Below, one piece after another: positions 18,036 to 25,530 of a stretch of 25,530 nt of DNA. Where the stretch lies: the NCBI GenBank assembly GCA_023145185.1, contig JAGLEG010000100.1, forward strand, positions 1-25,530. Reading direction: 5' to 3'. Source of the DNA: Thermoplasmata archaeon (lineage in GTDB: Archaea > Thermoplasmatota > Penumbrarchaeia > Penumbrarchaeales > Penumbrarchaeaceae). The notes under the pieces were generated by a model. That model saw only the letters and a program-made list of their open reading frames with translations, searched no databases and had not been told where the DNA came from. Every line of letters begins with the position of its first letter. The stretch's first letter is position 1. The translations under genes and the position numbers were made by a program.

Positions 18036-20936
18036 ATGAAAGCTGTAATATTATCTTTGTTTTTGATCGCAAGCGGAATGTTCCTGTTCACCATGCCGGA
18101 CGATGTTGACTCGATGAGCTTCGACCCGCGGTGGGACGTTGATGGGAACAGGACCGTTGTATGCAACGCAACACTCGACCAGTACTTGCTCGGATCGATC
18201 GGCGACGGCGAGGGTGGAATGATCGTGGTTTGGGTAGATTATAGATTGGACGATTCCGCGGATACCTATGTTCAACGGTTATCCGCTGACGGAACTCCCT
18301 TGTGGGGGGAGAACGGACTGCTTATATCCGATTTTGATTTTGATCAGGAGGATTCGCAGATTGTCTCCGATGGCGCGGGCGGGGCCATAGTTCTATGGCC
18401 CGGGTCCTCCGGTTTGGGAGATGATCTCTTCGCACAGCGCGTGGGCCACAATGGAGACCTCCTCTGGGGAGAGGAAGGGCTCATCGTCTGCGGCGCCGAG
18501 GAGGGCCAGTTGTATGCAAAGATGATCAGCGATGGGTCGGGCGGAGCGATATTCACGTGGGGGGACACCAGGGACGGAGGCTATGATATCTACGCCCAGA
18601 GGATAGATGGTGACGGGGCCCTGTTGTGGGAGGAGAACGGAACGGCCATCTGTACCATGTTCGGGGATCAGGCACGGCCGGAGATAACCTCTGATGGAGC
18701 CGGCGGTGCGATCCTCACCTGGAGGGATACCAGATATGTTGCATCGGACATATTCACCCAGCGTGTAAACCGGAGTGGAGAGGTGCAGTGGACGGAGGAT
18801 GGTGTGGAGATATGCTCGGGTTCCGGACCCCACTGGTATCCCAAGATCTTCGAGGACGGATCCGGAGGGGCGGTGATAACATGGCAGGACGGAAGGGACG
18901 GGCTCAACATCTATGCTCAGCGGGTGAATGCAACCGGGGCGCCATTGTGGGGTGAGAACGGTAAAGCGGTGTGCACCGCATCAGATGATCAGGTAGAACC
19001 CATTGTGGTGGTGGATAGCTCGGGCCATTCGATCATTGCCTGGGTGGATAACAGGGAGATGGACATGGATATCTACGCCCAGAGGATGAGCCCTGAAGGC
19101 GACATCTTGTGGGAGGAGAACGGAACGGTGGTATGTACTGCTGCAGAGAGTCAGGGTAACGTGGATATGTTGGCCGATGGATCGGGAGGTGTATTTCTTG
19201 TCTGGAGCGATTACAGGGCCAAGTCCGCAAAGGAGCTCTATACTCAACATGTCGGTCCTGATGGCATGATGTACTGGATGGAGAACGGGATCAACGTTCT
19301 CATAGGACCGAACAACCTGGCCAATCCGAGGCTGGCGGAGGATGGCAAGGGGGGGATCTTCATCGCTTGGGAGGGCAACGACCCCATCTCAGATAGAGAC
19401 ATCTATGCGAGACACATCGGGATGGTGATCACATCAACGGAGCCACAGGCCGAATTCGATGAGGATTCACTACCCGTATTTGACATGACCTCTAACGAAG
19501 ATTGGAACGCCACATGGTCACTGACCTCCGATGCTGACTGCTTCTGGATAGATCCCCAAACGGGCCTGGTATCGGGGATGCCAGATAACACACATGTAGG
19601 CATCCACTGGATCAATATTCACGTGGAGAACAACGAGTGGATGTGGGACAGCCTCAACTTCACCGTGGAGGTCATGAACATACCTGCGGTGATCACCACC
19701 CTGGAACCGATAACTACGGTTGATCAGGGGGACGCTTACCTGTTCGATCTGGACAGCAGCGACGACGGTCAGGGGAACGTGTCGTGGTCCCTATCGACAG
19801 CTGGAGGGTGGCTTACCGTAAATACGACCTCTGGTGTCCTCTCGGGAGTGCCGGAGAACCAGGATGTAGGTGAATCCACCGTCAACGTATCCGTATCCGA
19901 CGGCAACGGGGGCTTCGATCACCTGATATTCAATATCACCGTAAATGACACGAACGACGCGCCCATCATCACGAACTATGACTACATGAATGTGACCCAG
20001 GATGAGCTGTTCATACTGGCCCTGAACGCGACGGATGTCGATCTCCCGGGAGATGTACTGACGTGGAACTACACCACATCCGCATCATGGCTCGGGTTCA
20101 ACGAGACAACGCTTCTGATATCCGGCACCCCTGGAAACGACGATGTGGGCGAGCATTGGATAAACATCACCGTCGAGGACGGCAGGGGAGGTGCGGACGC
20201 CATCAATATCACGTTGATCGTTGAGAACTGGAACGATGCACCAACGATACTGACCACTGAACTGCCCATGGCCACGATAGATATTCTGTACACGTTCGAA
20301 CTGGAGGCGGTGGACATCGACCCAACGAACGATACGTTGACGTGGTCCATCTCGTCAAATAGCTCCTGGCTCTCGATAAACTCCACCACCGGGGTCCTCT
20401 CCGGGACGCCGACGGAGGATGATGTGGGATTGGAGGTCATAGAGATCACCGTCTCTGACGGCCAGGGAGGGGAGGACATCATCTTCTTCTCGCTTTCGGT
20501 CCTGGGGGTCAATGAGCCTCCTGTGATCGATCCGGTCTCACCACAAAAAGGTGTGGTGGGCGAAACGTACCTGCTGGAGCTATCAGCCACCGATATCAAT
20601 GGTGATACCATGACCTGGTCCATTGTGACCGACGCGGATTGGCTCTCGATCAACGGGACCACAGGGGCCCTTTCGGGCATGGCGGTTCTGGGAACGTTCG
20701 ACGTGACCGTGACGGTAGATGATGGGAGGGGAGGTACCGATACGATGGTTCTCACCATCGAGATCGGGCCCACCGTGACAGCTGATGATGATGACGATGA
20801 GGGAGGCGACGATACGGATGATAATGCAGGCATGATGCCGTTCATTATCATGGGCATCCTGCTCCTTCTCATCGTGGTTGTGGTGATCATCGTACTGACG
20901 AGGAAGGGATCCTCCTCCGACGCGGATGAGGAGTAA
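18036..20936 (+). CDS. Large membrane-anchored surface protein: signal peptide, 8-repeat beta-propeller-like domain, 5 cadherin-like/He_PIG Ig domains, acidic linker, C-terminal TM
   Basis: Signal MKAVILSLFLIASGMFLF; repeats DGxGGxxxxW...DIYAQRxxxxG...W; Ig repeats with W-SL...WL.IN.TTG.LSG.P...DVG...V.V.DG.GG and NDAP junctions; linker DDDDDEGGDDTDD; TM PFIIMGILLLLIVVVVIIVL; many N-x-S/T sequons. Confidence 0.9.
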   Translation: MKAVILSLFLIASGMFLFTMPDDVDSMSFDPRWDVDGNRTVVCNATLDQYLLGSIGDGEGGMIVVWVDYRLDDSADTYVQRLSADGTPLWGENGLLISDFDFDQEDSQIVSDGAGGAIVLWPGSSGLGDDLFAQRVGHNGDLLWGEEGLIVCGAEEGQLYAKMISDGSGGAIFTWGDTRDGGYDIYAQRIDGDGALLWEENGTAICTMFGDQARPEITSDGAGGAILTWRDTRYVASDIFTQRVNRSGEVQWTEDGVEICSGSGPHWYPKIFEDGSGGAVITWQDGRDGLNIYAQRVNATGAPLWGENGKAVCTASDDQVEPIVVVDSSGHSIIAWVDNREMDMDIYAQRMSPEGDILWEENGTVVCTAAESQGNVDMLADGSGGVFLVWSDYRAKSAKELYTQHVGPDGMMYWMENGINVLIGPNNLANPRLAEDGKGGIFIAWEGNDPISDRDIYARHIGMVITSTEPQAEFDEDSLPVFDMTSNEDWNATWSLTSDADCFWIDPQTGLVSGMPDNTHVGIHWINIHVENNEWMWDSLNFTVEVMNIPAVITTLEPITTVDQGDAYLFDLDSSDDGQGNVSWSLSTAGGWLTVNTTSGVLSGVPENQDVGESTVNVSVSDGNGGFDHLIFNITVNDTNDAPIITNYDYMNVTQDELFILALNATDVDLPGDVLTWNYTTSASWLGFNETTLLISGTPGNDDVGEHWINITVEDGRGGADAINITLIVENWNDAPTILTTELPMATIDILYTFELEAVDIDPTNDTLTWSISSNSSWLSINSTTGVLSGTPTEDDVGLEVIEITVSDGQGGEDIIFFSLSVLGVNEPPVIDPVSPQKGVVGETYLLELSATDINGDTMTWSIVTDADWLSINGTTGALSGMAVLGTFDVTVTVDDGRGGTDTMVLTIEIGPTVTADDDDDEGGDDTDDNAGMMPFIIMGILLLLIVVVVIIVLTRKGSSSDADEE
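18204..19421 (+). repeat. Eight tandem protein repeats of about 54 aa (probable beta-propeller blades)
   Basis: DGEGGMIVVW, DGAGGAIVLW, DGSGGAIFTW, DGAGGAILTW, DGSGGAVITW, DSSGHSIIAW, DGSGGVFLVW and DGKGGIFIAW, each followed by a D(I/L/T)(Y/F)xQR-like motif. Confidence 0.85.
19422..20771 (+). repeat. Five tandem cadherin-like / putative Ig (He_PIG-type) domains of about 90 aa
   Basis: Recurring G(L/V)(V/L/I)SG(M/V/T)P..DVG, DGxGG and N(D/E)(A/P)P junction motifs. Confidence 0.85.
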
Positions 20937-20988: not shown

Positions 20989-21194
20989 ATGATCTTTCAA
21001 CCATGGCCCGAAATGCGCCATATCTGTAACCTTATGGAGGAATAAAGCTCTTCCAGCGGAATTCGGTTATCTTTTGGACCGTTCCTAATCATTAAATAAC
21101 GGAAATTCGTTCAAAATGTGGGTCGGGTCGATCGTTCTTTTGGGGAAAACGGTCAGCCCGGTGAGCACCCTGGTTGTTTATAGAGGTGAGATGG

Positions 21195-24100
21195 ATGAAA
21201 AATTCGATGTTGATAGCTTTGATGATGGCGGCTGTGATGCTTCTTGTTCCGATGGGAACGCTCTCCATGGAAGGGCCGAAAACATTCCCTGATGCGGTGA
21301 TGGACCTCTCCACCTCATCGAGCGTTTCACACGAGGGTATAGTCGGGATGTGGGCTGGTACCTTCTCATCCATCCCGAATGGATGGACCTACATTTCCGA
21401 GATGGCGGATAAGTTCGTCCTGGGAGATTCGACCTCGCAAGGAAATGGAGGGGCGACGGAACACAAGCATACCTATACCGATATGCCCACCCATACACAC
21501 ACCATACCCTCCTCAGGAGCTCACACACATGATTTCTCCCATACAGATGTGAGATGTAGATCGTCGTCCAGCACTAATGGAAGGGGAGTTGGATCCAGTT
21601 CTGGCACAAGGGTCAGAACCAGTTCTGATGGTTCTCATACACATACCGTGAATTCCACCGGCAGCAGTTCGGCGGAGACCTCATCTTCGTCCAATCTTCC
21701 TCCGTACATTGAGCTAATATACCTCCAGAAGACGGACGCATCGGAGACCATACCCGAGGGCATGATCCTCTTCTGGTCAGGCCTTGTGTCCACGATCCCT
21801 GATGGATGGGGGCTTTGCGACGGCAACAGCAGCAATCCAGACCTCCGGAGTACGTTCTACAGGGGCGCCTCCCTGGATGAGGACGCAGGAAGCACTGGAG
21901 GCACCACCTCCCACCGCCATACATACACCGAGACCATCACCCATACACATACGTTAAACTCGGCCGGCAGACACGACCATGATTATCAGTTCCGCAGGAT
22001 CAGATCGACATTTTCTGGTTCGGCGGTCAGAGGAACGTCTACGGGAGCTACCACCATCACCACGACCTCGGAAGGCTCCCATTCACACGAGCTTTCCGTG
22101 GAGGGAACCTCTGTATGTTACACGGAGGACGAGAATAACCTGCCGCCTTACTACAAGCTCGCACCGATGATCAAGGTAGATGGTGACGGACCTCTGCCAT
22201 CGAATGCCATCTTTGGATGGTGGGATGTCTCCCAGGCTCCCGGGGAGTTCGGTGCATGTGATGGAACGAAGGGGACCCCGGACCTTGTGGACGTTATGAT
22301 AATGGGAGTTGGGCCCGGTGAGGGCCCTGGAGCAACCGGAGGGTCCACCCAGCATCAACACTCCTATTCTGATGTTCCGAGGCATGGCCATGGGACGTCC
22401 ACAGATGGCGATCACACGCATACGAGCTCCTTTTCCACCACCTATGGGAATGGGGATCCTGGCCCAACCGATATGAGAGGGACCTCGACCGGCAGCTCCT
22501 CCTCTCCCACCGAGTCCGCAGGCGATCATACTCACACTGTTTCCAAAGATGGGGCCACTGACTGCAAGACCTCAAATTCGGACGATCTTCCACCATATCG
22601 GACCATGGTATACATGATGAGGTCCTCCGTTTACAATGAGGATAAAGAGGAGTGGTATTCTACCATACAGGCCGCAGTTGATGATGCAGATGCGGGAGAT
22701 GATCTCTTCCTGACCAATGGAACCTATCTTGAGAACGTGATCGTGGGCAAGACGCTTACCATGAGTGCCAATTTCACCGGACAGGCGTTGATAAACGGGC
22801 TCAATAGTGACCACACGATGGAGGTCAAGGGGAAGAATGTCCAGATCACCGGATTGAACTTCACCAATTCATGGGATTACAGCGGGTTGTATATCATCGG
22901 TGACGGCCCCATTCTCGATGAGGTCACGTGCCACGATTCCACCGACGGCCTGTGGTTAAAAGGCGTTAATGGCGCAGAGATCACAGGTTCCAATTTCAAT
23001 AACTGCACAAGTGGTATTCTGATCGATGGCTCGTCCAACATCGGAATATCCGATTCTATTTTATCGGATAACACGGCCTCCGTAAATATATCCAACGTCC
23101 AGTCGCTAACCATCCAGAATTGCACCATGAAGGACAGTGATGTTGGAGTGGGAACCTCGGGCTCAACGATCAACAGTATACTCGTAAATGGTTCCACGTT
23201 CAATGGAGATGATAGGTCCCTGGAGCTGTATGGGGATAATGTGAGCGTCACCAACAACTCGTTTTCGGACTCTTCAGAATGGGCGGTTACGGCGGGGCAG
23301 GGCTCTGATCAAAAGGTAGCTTTCAATACGTTTGAGAGCTGTGAAAAAGGCATATATTTAAACGGTGCGAGGTGGGCAGATGTTACCGGAAACGAGTTAG
23401 ATGGAGTTGGTTACGGCATGTCGATATATGACTCTTATCTGGTGGATATCAGCGGTAATATGGTCAATTCCACGGGGAAGGGTATAGTTCTAAGCTGGGC
23501 ACAAAGTGTGGAGGTTACCGATAACGGGATCGATGCTGTAGATCTCGGAATATCCATTATGAACTCCGATACCATCAATATCAGCGATAGCAGGATCGCC
23601 GTTTCCGGAGAGGGGATCACGATCTCCGATGGCATGGATCTGAATATATGGAACAATTCGATATATGCCTGGGATATTGGCATCACAGCCCTATCATCCG
23701 ATAATAACACGATCCGTGATAATATCATATCCGGGAACCAGTCCCAGGGGATCATCCTCGATGACTGCATGGGGCACAACCTCTTACGAAATGAGGTGCT
23801 CAACTCCTCCCTCTGGTCTATCAAGCTCCTGAACTCCGATAACAACACTTTATTTGACAATGTTCTAATGGAGAATTCCTATGGTGTTGTGATCGAAGGC
23901 TCCTATGAGAATCTGATCCAGGGCAACCATATCTCCGACAGCTCTGAAAATGGGATATTGGTCCGATCATCGTTTGGCAATGAGATACGTTCGAACATGG
24001 TCCTGGATAACAGGGTGGGGATCAAGCTCAGAGATACTGTCGAGAACAGTATCTATGACAACCACATCGACAGCATCATCATGAACACCGACGTATTGAA

Positions 24101-25530
24101 CAGCGATAACGACCGCTGGAACACGACCTACTCACTGGGAACCAATATCATAGGTGGAGACCACATCGGTGGAAATTTCTGGTCCGACTACGATGGCCTG
24201 GACACCGACGGGGACTGGATCGGCGACACCGCCGTCCCACACGGGCCCGGGGACATGCTTCCGCTGGCCTACGATCTTGTGGCACCGGTCATCACCGATA
24301 TCACCACCGAGACCCCGACCACCGGGGAGGTCTTCATCATATCTGCATCCGTCGGGGATGAGAGGGAGGTTGCTTCAGCCTGGGCCCATTACTGGATCGA
24401 CGATGATGACCCGGTGAACGTGAGCCTTGCCCTTTCCAGGTCCAACGTCATGTACGTGGATATCGACATCCCATGGAACAGGACGGGTTCTTTGAACTTC
24501 GTGATCTACGCAAATGACACGTCGGAGAACCTGATCAGCACATCTACCAGCGTCTTGGAGATCGTGGACAATGACCTCCCGGAACTTGTGGAGGACTCAT
24601 CCGTTCAGGTTGCGTACACGGGCGATCCGCTGACCATTACTGCCGACCTGTCCGACAATATCGGCATCGACACCGTCCGGGTCCATCTGTTCAACTCCGT
24701 ATTGAACGTCACGTTGAGCATGACCTCGGACGATGATATCACCTGGTCGGTCACCACCTATGCTCCCCTGGATTCTCTTGAGGATATCGAATACGTTATC
24801 TACGTTCTGGATACGTCAGAAAATCAGTTTGAGACTGTTGAAAAGAGCATCCCGGTGATCGATAACGATCGTCCGGTCTTCGTTGACCTCCTCTCCCCTT
24901 CCATTGGATACACCGGGGACCTGTACACCTTCGAGGTGAACATCTCGGACAATATTGAGATCGATGAGGTCTGGATATCATTTGAGGGTGGGATGGCCAA
25001 TATTACATTGTCTCCTGGAGATGGAGACGCCTGGTCCGGTGAATGGTCCGTTCCGGAGGACCTTGTGGGAGATGTGAACATCTCGTGCCACGCCCTTGAC
25101 AGCACAGGAAGCGAGATGTCCCAGTTTGAATTCGCCATAACCATCATTGACAACGACCCTCCATCGCTGTTGAACCTCTCCTATCCGGAGGAGATCGGCC
25201 CGGGAAAGGAGATAGAGATCTTGATCGAGGCCAGGGACAATCTGGGCATCGAGGCCCTGGAGATATACTACTCAATGCCTGGAGAGGCGCAGAGGAACGC
25301 CTTATTGGAACCGGTGAACGGCTCCTATTCCTTCACGATAGGGTCTGGAGATGACCTGGGAAACATCACCTTCTCACTGCTGATATCTGATGAGCAGTGG
25401 AATAATGTCACATCGGAGGAGTTCACCATCAATGTCATCGATGATGTGCTGCCGATCTGTACCATAACAGACCCCGCTGATGGTAACCTGGTCAGCGGCG
25501 TGATCACCATCGGGTTCAATATGAGCGATG
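21195..25530 (+). CDS. Giant secreted surface protein (>1445 aa, truncated by the window end): signal peptide, three phage tail-collar/HxH modules, right-handed parallel beta-helix (NosD/CASH-like), at least 4.5 Ig-like repeats
   Basis: Not in the ORF track. Manual translation is open from ATG 21195 (GAGGTGA RBS 5 nt upstream) to the end. It reads MKNSMLIALMMAAVMLLVPMG, then the collar repeats, YSTIQAAVDDADAGDDLFLTNGTYLENV, N-x-I-x-x-N beta-helix rungs, the cap GGNFWSDYDGLDTDGDWIGDT, and Ig repeats starting DLVAP, DNDLP, DNDRP, DNDPP and DDVLP. Confidence 0.9.
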   Translation, partial: MKNSMLIALMMAAVMLLVPMGTLSMEGPKTFPDAVMDLSTSSSVSHEGIVGMWAGTFSSIPNGWTYISEMADKFVLGDSTSQGNGGATEHKHTYTDMPTHTHTIPSSGAHTHDFSHTDVRCRSSSSTNGRGVGSSSGTRVRTSSDGSHTHTVNSTGSSSAETSSSSNLPPYIELIYLQKTDASETIPEGMILFWSGLVSTIPDGWGLCDGNSSNPDLRSTFYRGASLDEDAGSTGGTTSHRHTYTETITHTHTLNSAGRHDHDYQFRRIRSTFSGSAVRGTSTGATTITTTSEGSHSHELSVEGTSVCYTEDENNLPPYYKLAPMIKVDGDGPLPSNAIFGWWDVSQAPGEFGACDGTKGTPDLVDVMIMGVGPGEGPGATGGSTQHQHSYSDVPRHGHGTSTDGDHTHTSSFSTTYGNGDPGPTDMRGTSTGSSSSPTESAGDHTHTVSKDGATDCKTSNSDDLPPYRTMVYMMRSSVYNEDKEEWYSTIQAAVDDADAGDDLFLTNGTYLENVIVGKTLTMSANFTGQALINGLNSDHTMEVKGKNVQITGLNFTNSWDYSGLYIIGDGPILDEVTCHDSTDGLWLKGVNGAEITGSNFNNCTSGILIDGSSNIGISDSILSDNTASVNISNVQSLTIQNCTMKDSDVGVGTSGSTINSILVNGSTFNGDDRSLELYGDNVSVTNNSFSDSSEWAVTAGQGSDQKVAFNTFESCEKGIYLNGARWADVTGNELDGVGYGMSIYDSYLVDISGNMVNSTGKGIVLSWAQSVEVTDNGIDAVDLGISIMNSDTINISDSRIAVSGEGITISDGMDLNIWNNSIYAWDIGITALSSDNNTIRDNIISGNQSQGIILDDCMGHNLLRNEVLNSSLWSIKLLNSDNNTLFDNVLMENSYGVVIEGSYENLIQGNHISDSSENGILVRSSFGNEIRSNMVLDNRVGIKLRDTVENSIYDNHIDSIIMNTDVLNSDNDRWNTTYSLGTNIIGGDHIGGNFWSDYDGLDTDGDWIGDTAVPHGPGDMLPLAYDLVAPVITDITTETPTTGEVFIISASVGDEREVASAWAHYWIDDDDPVNVSLALSRSNVMYVDIDIPWNRTGSLNFVIYANDTSENLISTSTSVLEIVDNDLPELVEDSSVQVAYTGDPLTITADLSDNIGIDTVRVHLFNSVLNVTLSMTSDDDITWSVTTYAPLDSLEDIEYVIYVLDTSENQFETVEKSIPVIDNDRPVFVDLLSPSIGYTGDLYTFEVNISDNIEIDEVWISFEGGMANITLSPGDGDAWSGEWSVPEDLVGDVNISCHALDSTGSEMSQFEFAITIIDNDPPSLLNLSYPEEIGPGKEIEILIEARDNLGIEALEIYYSMPGEAQRNALLEPVNGSYSFTIGSGDDLGNITFSLLISDEQWNNVTSEEFTINVIDDVLPICTITDPADGNLVSGVITIGFNMSD
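21336..22628 (+). repeat. Three tandem 141-148 aa phage tail-collar-like modules, each with four His-x-His motifs
   Basis: Units start at 21336 (GIVGMWAGTFSSIPNGW), 21759 (GMILFWSGLVSTIPDGWGLCDG..PDLRSTFYRGA) and 22203 (NAIFGWW...GACDG..TPDL); each ends in LPPY. Confidence 0.85.
24273..25530 (+). repeat. Tandem Ig-like repeats of about 97 aa (stalk), last one truncated
   Basis: D-x-x-x-P starts, TG(E/D)xxT(I/F)xxx(V/I/L)xDNxxI motif, D(T/S)S(E/G)N-like turns and terminal (I/V)(V/I) strands, repeated four times plus a partial fifth. Confidence 0.8.

Follow-up and report, generated by a model that had tools for sequence, protein, structure and literature searches.

The textbook case of an obligate, intertwined homotrimer is the tip of a phage tail fibre, in which three identical chains contribute one unit each around a common axis. 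In the T4 gp37 tip, the chain folds back towards the collar, and Fe is coordinated by its HxH motifs (two histidines separated by one residue) (PMC12609058). For the virophage DSLV2, a heterotrimer of three paralogous gp37-like chains is reported, based on modelling, molecular dynamics and biochemistry (PMC12724248); the three parts of a tip therefore need not be identical. Homotrimeric and heterotrimeric fibre tips are thus already known, whereas a fused single-chain triple was not found described: no paper on fused single-chain or pseudo-trimeric triple collar modules was found in the open-access literature searched. The window analysed here is a 25.5-kb stretch (25,530 nucleotides) from a Thermoplasmata archaeon (assembly GCA_023145185.1, JAGLEG010000100.1) and represents an entire contig (C3) of a metagenome-assembled genome (MAG; 2.77 Mb, 594 contigs, 91% complete). 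At 21195..25529 on the plus strand it carries a gene for a secreted surface protein of at least 1445 aa, as read from the list of open reading frames (ORFs) and the translation; the contig ends before the 3' end of the gene. Three tail-fibre tip units follow each other near its N-terminus. It is likely that this one chain forms a three-part fibre-tip knob, i.e. an intramolecular pseudo-trimer, and that the protein is a cell-surface adhesin or ligand-recognition protein.

The three units were delimited by motif scan and unit alignment. All features lie on the plus strand: R1 covers aa 44-186 (21324..21752), R2 aa 187-334 (21753..22196) and R3 aa 335-483 (22197..22643). The units of ~145 aa are 28-38% identical to each other and share 27 invariant columns, which include all eight motif histidines, GG, the LPPY motif and the collar Trp/Pro. 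The HxH motifs start at residues 90/100/110/148 in R1 (HKH/HTH/HTH/HTH), 240/250/260/296 in R2 (HRH/HTH/HDH/HSH) and 387/397/407/445 in R3 (HQH/HGH/HTH/HTH), and LPPY at residues 168, 316 and 465, respectively. Within each unit, the motifs are separated by 7, 7 and 35, 33 or 35 residues, followed by exactly 17 residues to LPPY. Translation and motif scan reproduced motifs, spacings and LPPY exactly as given in a first-pass annotation of this DNA. The first 480 of the 1445 residues hold all 12 HxH motifs of the protein and 26 of its 36 histidines, and linkers of only ~7-8 residues connect consecutive units. The collar is canonical and complete in R2 (PEGMILFW..IPDGWGLCDG..PDLR), nearly complete in R3 (CDG..PDL) and degenerate in R1, where CDG..PDLR is lost; the C-terminal LPPY is kept in all three units. 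The divergent segment is the loop between HxH3 and HxH4, which is Arg/Ser-rich in R1 (aa 113-147, 21531..21635), Arg-rich in R2 (aa 263-295, 21981..22079) and Gly/Pro/Asp-rich in R3 (aa 410-444, 22422..22526), as seen in the alignment and the structure model. The RG core reported before is kept in all three loops. The R1 loop is presumed to lie at the distal tip, a position placed from the topology of gp37 (PMC12609058).

The units are phage tail-fibre tip domains according to Pfam, PHROG, PDB sequence and fold matches. On the whole protein, Pfam Gp10_C (PF21939) scored 32.3 bits against a cut-off of 27, while single units stayed below the threshold with 24.2 bits (R1) and 19.5 bits (R3). The Collar family (PF07484), which had been expected to match, reached 13.3 bits in R2 and thus remained below its cut-off of 24, though nine close homologues pass it with 28-42 bits. 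All eight PHROG matches were tail proteins, among them phrog_5795 with E 5e-37 in three stretches and phrog_1800, a 'tail collar fiber protein', with E 5e-21. PDB sequence matches were obtained with 9qgo (PVC fibre), 9nxk (Pa223 fibre) and 6ov6 (Bizionia C24); they are centred on R2, have E values between 7e-8 and 6e-3, and each entry was deposited as three chains of one sequence. In the VIA fold search against 48,161 representative chains, only six reached Z ≥ 2 and all six were fibre tips, namely, 6ov6 with 5.1, T4 gp37 (2xgf), PVC (8on5) and T4 gp12 (1ocy/5iv5) with 3.9, and the cyanophage A-1(L) entry 8kec with 2.9. Chain 2xgf_A of gp37 aligned to model residues 145-290. Among the AFDB clusters, only tail-collar, MdpB and tail-fibre entries were matched; two proteins of ~500 aa span the module with a TM-score of about 0.4, which is uninformative on its geometry.

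A profile of the three units matched 16,273 representative proteins at E ≤ 0.001; a second profile, rebuilt from 216 units, served to count units in 255 retrieved homologues. Three units were present in 147 proteins, six in 14 and nine in one, and the triplets of the six- and nine-unit proteins are separated by spacers of 140-280 aa. One unit was found in 36 proteins and two in 37. No clear four- or five-unit protein occurred among the 255 homologues, a few counts being ambiguous; apparent counts of 4, 5 and 7 mostly represent single units split by long insertions. Lone units reach to four or fewer residues from the C-terminus in 34 of 36 single-unit proteins, while more than 50 aa follow the triple module in 92 of 147. 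This fits the topology of gp37, whose chain turns round at the head and runs back to the collar (PMC12609058): by this topology a lone unit has to come last in its chain, whereas three units linked collar to collar do not. Where the DNA of two-unit genes was readable, all four adjoin a one-unit gene. In three siphophage tail loci, a one-unit gene (184-202 aa) lies directly upstream of a two-unit gene, with an overlapping ATGA junction in one of them. In a bacterial locus (L010:1546-3170), a two-unit gene (343 aa) is followed by a one-unit gene (193 aa). Both products have a signal peptide of their own, and the pair is a secreted 2+1 version of the knob outside a phage context. Homotrimer, three-gene heterotrimer (1+1+1), 1+2 pair and one-chain triple give a fusion series. 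The first-pass annotation had held copy numbers of 1, 2, 4 or more against a single-chain knob. One and two units do occur, but, in 34 of 36 single-unit proteins and in the four two-unit loci with readable DNA, as chain ends or as halves of adjacent 1+2 pairs, which strengthens the idea, and no clear four or five was seen.

Several homologues deviate from these layouts. In P0079 (928 aa) and P0088 (822 aa), the sole single-unit proteins with a non-C-terminal unit, C1q (PF00386) or collagen-repeat (PF01391) families occur as well, and these form trimers themselves. In P0028 (963 aa; units at 13-136, 146-283 and 292-312 + 670-781), the third unit is apparently split by an insert of ~350 aa with intein and LAGLIDADG families (PF14890, PF03161), which would be an intein inside a fibre-tip unit. 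P0190, P0194, P0216 and P0238 match only the first ~60-80 profile positions, i.e. the collar part, three times each; they may represent triple collars whose distal part differs. Synechococcus phage Sf-FR1 gp196 was considered as a multi-unit gene of a cultured phage and rejected, as it has one collar and a needle of 15 HxH. In this protein (SfFR1_196, L091:1844-3385), the 15 HxH follow the collar mostly with a 13-residue period, eight up, a gap and seven down, which makes this a gp37-like needle of unusual length.

The three units of a module also agree in their number of HxH motifs. Combinations of 3/3/3, 4/4/4, 6/6/6 and ~7/7/7 were found, with r between 0.85 and 0.92 for pairs of positions; 4/4/4 occurred in 24 modules and 3/3/3 in 10, and each sub-architecture has its own spacing. 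Across 72 homologous triple modules, HxH1-3 are near-invariant in every unit, so that the HxH pattern is not a product of chance. The exact 10/10 HxH register of the window protein is common to its closest relative P0114. The lock of the spacing that the first-pass annotation describes for this protein is not strict family-wide, since the units of one module often differ by 1-2 residues. For 164 of 216 units, the nearest neighbour was the unit at the same position of another protein, and the triplication is therefore old and maintained. The unit tree showed no global split into three clades by position, but position clades at the level of subfamilies.

AlphaFold2 (AF2) models were built for the triple module (aa 40-486, 72 alignment rows) and for R2 alone (45 alignment rows). 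The triple module was modelled with a mean predicted local distance difference test (pLDDT) of 82.8 and a predicted template modelling score (pTM) of 0.78, and its HxH regions reached a pLDDT of 97-98. Only the three loops between HxH3 and HxH4, which the alignment had confirmed as divergent, drop below 50-60. R2 alone gave a mean pLDDT of 65 and a pTM of 0.43; its collar stayed at 92-94, whereas its HxH region fell to 46-56. A single chain carrying all three units is thus predicted to pack, while the lone unit is poorly folded in its model. The histidine half of the unit was modelled confidently only together with its two neighbours, as would be expected if the units share one needle, and by prediction the units depend on each other for folding. 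A complex prediction with R1, R2 and R3 as separate chains and four Zn scored 0.26 against a mark of 0.32 and was not used either way. Taken together, the rule of three, the 1+2 genes, the co-variation of HxH number and the dependence in AF2 indicate, indirectly, that the triplet behaves as an obligate module, in agreement with the single-chain pseudo-trimer put forward from the sequence at first.

Instead of one chain, three whole proteins could associate such that like units trimerise between the chains and are stacked on one axis. This would resemble the solved relatives, all of which were deposited as three chains of one sequence, and the window protein has a beta-helix, a fold that in its trimeric right-handed form is paired with binding domains in phage tailspikes. 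Such a homotrimer is nevertheless improbable. Beads on a trimeric string could occur in any number, yet 3, 6 or 9 units were seen and no clear 4 or 5, and the 1+2 and 2+1 gene pairs sum to three. In AF2, the three units of one chain pack against each other while the lone unit is poorly folded, as described above. Moreover, NosD-type beta-helices and Ig domains, as found in the stalk of this protein, are usually monomeric. The chain-terminal position of 34 of 36 lone units fits the return of the gp37 chain to the collar (PMC12609058), and with this return and linkers of 7-8 residues a co-axial stacking of the units is sterically implausible.

In the preferred architecture, the first ~480 residues would form one domain from three fused and diverged phage tail-fibre tip units. 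Each unit would consist of a collar, a short HxH 'needle', a tip loop and a return strand to LPPY. As the chain of a unit would double back, both unit ends would sit at the collar, where the short linkers could lead from each unit into the following one, such that one Sec-exported chain would supply all three 'chains'. By analogy with T4 gp37, the 12 HxH motifs are predicted to stack as four levels of six histidines around the axis, and these levels probably hold structural metal ions. The three different loops of 33-35 residues would, given their divergence, form an asymmetric distal face. The knob would be located at the N-terminal, cell-distal end of a stalk of beta-helix and Ig-like domains, and the PGF-CTERM-like membrane anchor of complete relatives suggests surface display for the window protein as well. 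By analogy, the most likely role is that of a surface adhesin or of ligand recognition, probably for a glycan, which is favoured because of what fibre tips bind and because of the attached CASH-type beta-helix. Threefold geometry, metal sites, anchoring, ligand and function are the parts of this architecture that we infer. More tentatively, and with somewhat less than even confidence, the domain in its fully fused form may no longer be bound to threefold symmetry or to the end of a chain; the window protein would then act as an adhesin of the cell, its three loops together reading one asymmetric ligand. If true, archaea and bacteria could mount an asymmetric, metal-stapled head with three loops anywhere in a monomeric, Sec-exported and membrane-anchored protein.

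The histidines would also allow a different main role, namely, extracellular capture or storage of metals (Fe, Zn or Ni) by 24 clustered His. The 12 HxH motifs lie within 360 residues, and iron-binding fibres have reportedly been discussed in marine phages. HxH motifs of phage fibres do bind Fe (PMC12609058). However, the ions of gp37 are buried and structural and not exchangeable, no metal-transport genes adjoin the gene according to the Pfam scan of the window ORFs, and the module sits on a long adhesin-like stalk, while relatives pair it with many unrelated stalk domains. Metal capture as the main role is thus considered unlikely, and the 'metal trap' suggested before found no support. Least probable is a tandem of independent beads, i.e. 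self-sufficient lectin-like or metal-binding domains that serve avidity and do not pack mutually: tandem repeats are common in surface proteins and the collar of the lone unit was modelled with confidence (pLDDT 92-94), but the HxH half loses this confidence outside the triple context (46-56 versus 97-98), three freely jointed domains of ~150 aa would not reach a pTM of 0.78 over 447 residues, and repeats that serve avidity would not be expected to keep a fixed count of three or to come in split 1+2 genes.

Some observations weigh against the single-chain knob. The fold matches are weak (Z 2.9-5.1; best Foldseek PDB hit with E 0.3, to 6ov6). The lone-unit control was built on a shallower alignment than the triple (45 versus 72 rows), and the pTM of 0.78 denotes confident packing between units in the model but says nothing of its symmetry. 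The copy-number sample is biased, as one search was ranked by summed score and the other was restricted to proteins of 795-2530 aa. Matching HxH numbers could, from the sequences, also stem from independent triplications of different ancestors and not from constraint. Unit positions did not fall into matching groups across the subfamilies with three and four HxH per unit, and hence no coordinated loss of HxH4 is claimed. In the ~7-HxH subfamily, R3 often misses one or two motifs, so that a complete set of hexa-His sites is not required. Between the two congeneric orthologues, the tip loops show no hypervariability; of the asymmetric receptor-binding head proposed in the first-pass annotation, the divergence of the three loops stands, whereas a variability of the loops above that of the module was not seen between these orthologues. 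Finally, the C-terminus of the protein, and hence its putative anchor, lies beyond the end of the contig.

Outside the module, the protein begins with a probable Sec signal peptide (aa 1-~25, 21195..21269), which had been noticed before and has a basic n-region with K, followed by a stretch of 15 hydrophobic residues (Kyte-Doolittle mean 2.69). Alternative starts upstream of 21195 are GTG at 21186 and TTG at 21174; the database copy of the gene product (P0002) has 1448 aa. Most of the archaeal homologues examined begin in the same way. The module is followed by a right-handed parallel beta-helix of the NosD/CASH type (~aa 500-1010, 22692..24224, ends approximate), which was assigned by Pfam with scores above the threshold (PF05048 NosD 175 bits, PF13229 Beta_helix 128 bits). 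The G+C content dips to 0.467 in this region (positions 23001-24000) compared to about 0.55 elsewhere on the contig. Repeated Ig-like domains (~aa 1085-1445, 24447..25529) run off the contig; here, Pfam matches are sub-threshold (Big_7 E 0.012, DUF4625 E 0.0099), and 'VxDNDxP' recurs in the translation. The stalk of beta-helix and weakly matched Ig domains was therefore as annotated, and so was the lack of phage genes nearby. The other window ORFs with a Pfam match are all cellular: Topo VI A/B, H+-PPase, radical SAM, nucleotidyl transferase, DUF72 and a He_PIG surface protein. Topo VI A and B identify the source as an archaeon, and Topo VI A shares 95% identity with its counterpart in uncultured Thermoplasmata MAGs. 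No phage families were matched in the Pfam scan of the other window ORFs, three of the ten scanned having no Pfam match. The domestication of a virus-derived module, as suggested in the first-pass annotation, would be one conceivable history of the gene. The He_PIG gene is the upstream neighbour (18036-20936, plus strand) and encodes a secreted protein of 966 aa with He_PIG, Big_9 and cadherin-like repeats, an Asp-rich stretch and a C-terminal transmembrane anchor. Together with the triple-module gene, it is a small surface-protein cluster.

The closest relatives of the module are hypothetical or 'microcystin-dependent' proteins from MAGs of Promethearchaeota, Lokiarchaeota and Bathyarchaeota. 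Among the relatives examined from Asgard archaea and Bathyarchaeota, many (e.g. P0005, P0015, P0115, P0120) start with a signal peptide and the triple module, continue with various stalks and end with a PGF-like motif, a transmembrane helix and a basic tail. Within the Thermoplasmatota, the gene was found in two of 61 genomes searched, the source genome and a congener, in whose orthologue the module is 58-74% identical compared to 44% for the beta-helix. The congener orthologue (genome G001, contig C232) has an in-frame TGA in R1 (L006:127-129; SLD*SHTHTV versus SDGSHTHTV), which replaces the Gly just before HxH4; otherwise its frame stays open over more than 830 aa. A pseudogene, a sequencing error or a recoded stop could each account for this.

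A natural single-chain tip shows how symmetry can be broken by gene fusion and would give three loops that can evolve independently. It would also explain a large unannotated domain, given the number of representative proteins that match the unit profile; many of the best-scoring matches carry triple modules in surface proteins from archaea and bacteria that have not been cultured. In annotation, the rule of three is a simple way to spot split (1+2) phage fibre genes, and single-chain tips are a practical starting point for fibre-tip binders that are monomeric and easy to express. For the source archaeon, the gene marks a probable cell-surface recognition protein.

Compared to known systems, the window protein is alike the tips of T4 gp37 (2xgf) and gp12 (1ocy) in its collar, HxH ladder, distal loop and return strand with a PPY-like end. 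The T4 tips, however, are homotrimers with one C-terminal unit per chain and are part of the virion, whereas the window protein is cellular and secreted, has three diverged units fused at the N-terminus of a single chain, and carries four HxH per unit in contrast to seven in gp37. PVC Pvc13 (9qgo, 8on5), Pa223 (9nxk) and Bizionia C24 (6ov6) share the collar motif and the C-terminal PPY strand; unlike the window protein, they have one unit per chain, which ends the protein, and form homotrimers. Close homologues of the module are annotated as MdpB-like or 'microcystin-dependent protein'. In DSLV2, three non-identical gp37-like chains make one tip, as the three units of the window protein might. 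There, they are encoded by three adjacent genes and remain separate chains on a virus particle, while the parts are fused in the window protein and partly fused in the 1+2 phage pairs. The most similar proteins are archaeal and bacterial triple-module proteins (MFX1500174.1, Promethearchaeota; MBD3354156.1, Lokiarchaeota; MBD3186057.1, Bathyarchaeota), whose modules are 29-38% identical. The archaeal ones have a signal peptide, an N-terminal triple unit, a variable stalk and a PGF-CTERM-like anchor, and the window protein differs from these relatives by its NosD beta-helix stalk and its Thermoplasmata host. The orientation of such an anchored knob would be the reverse of that of a phage fibre, which is possible only since the module need not end the chain.

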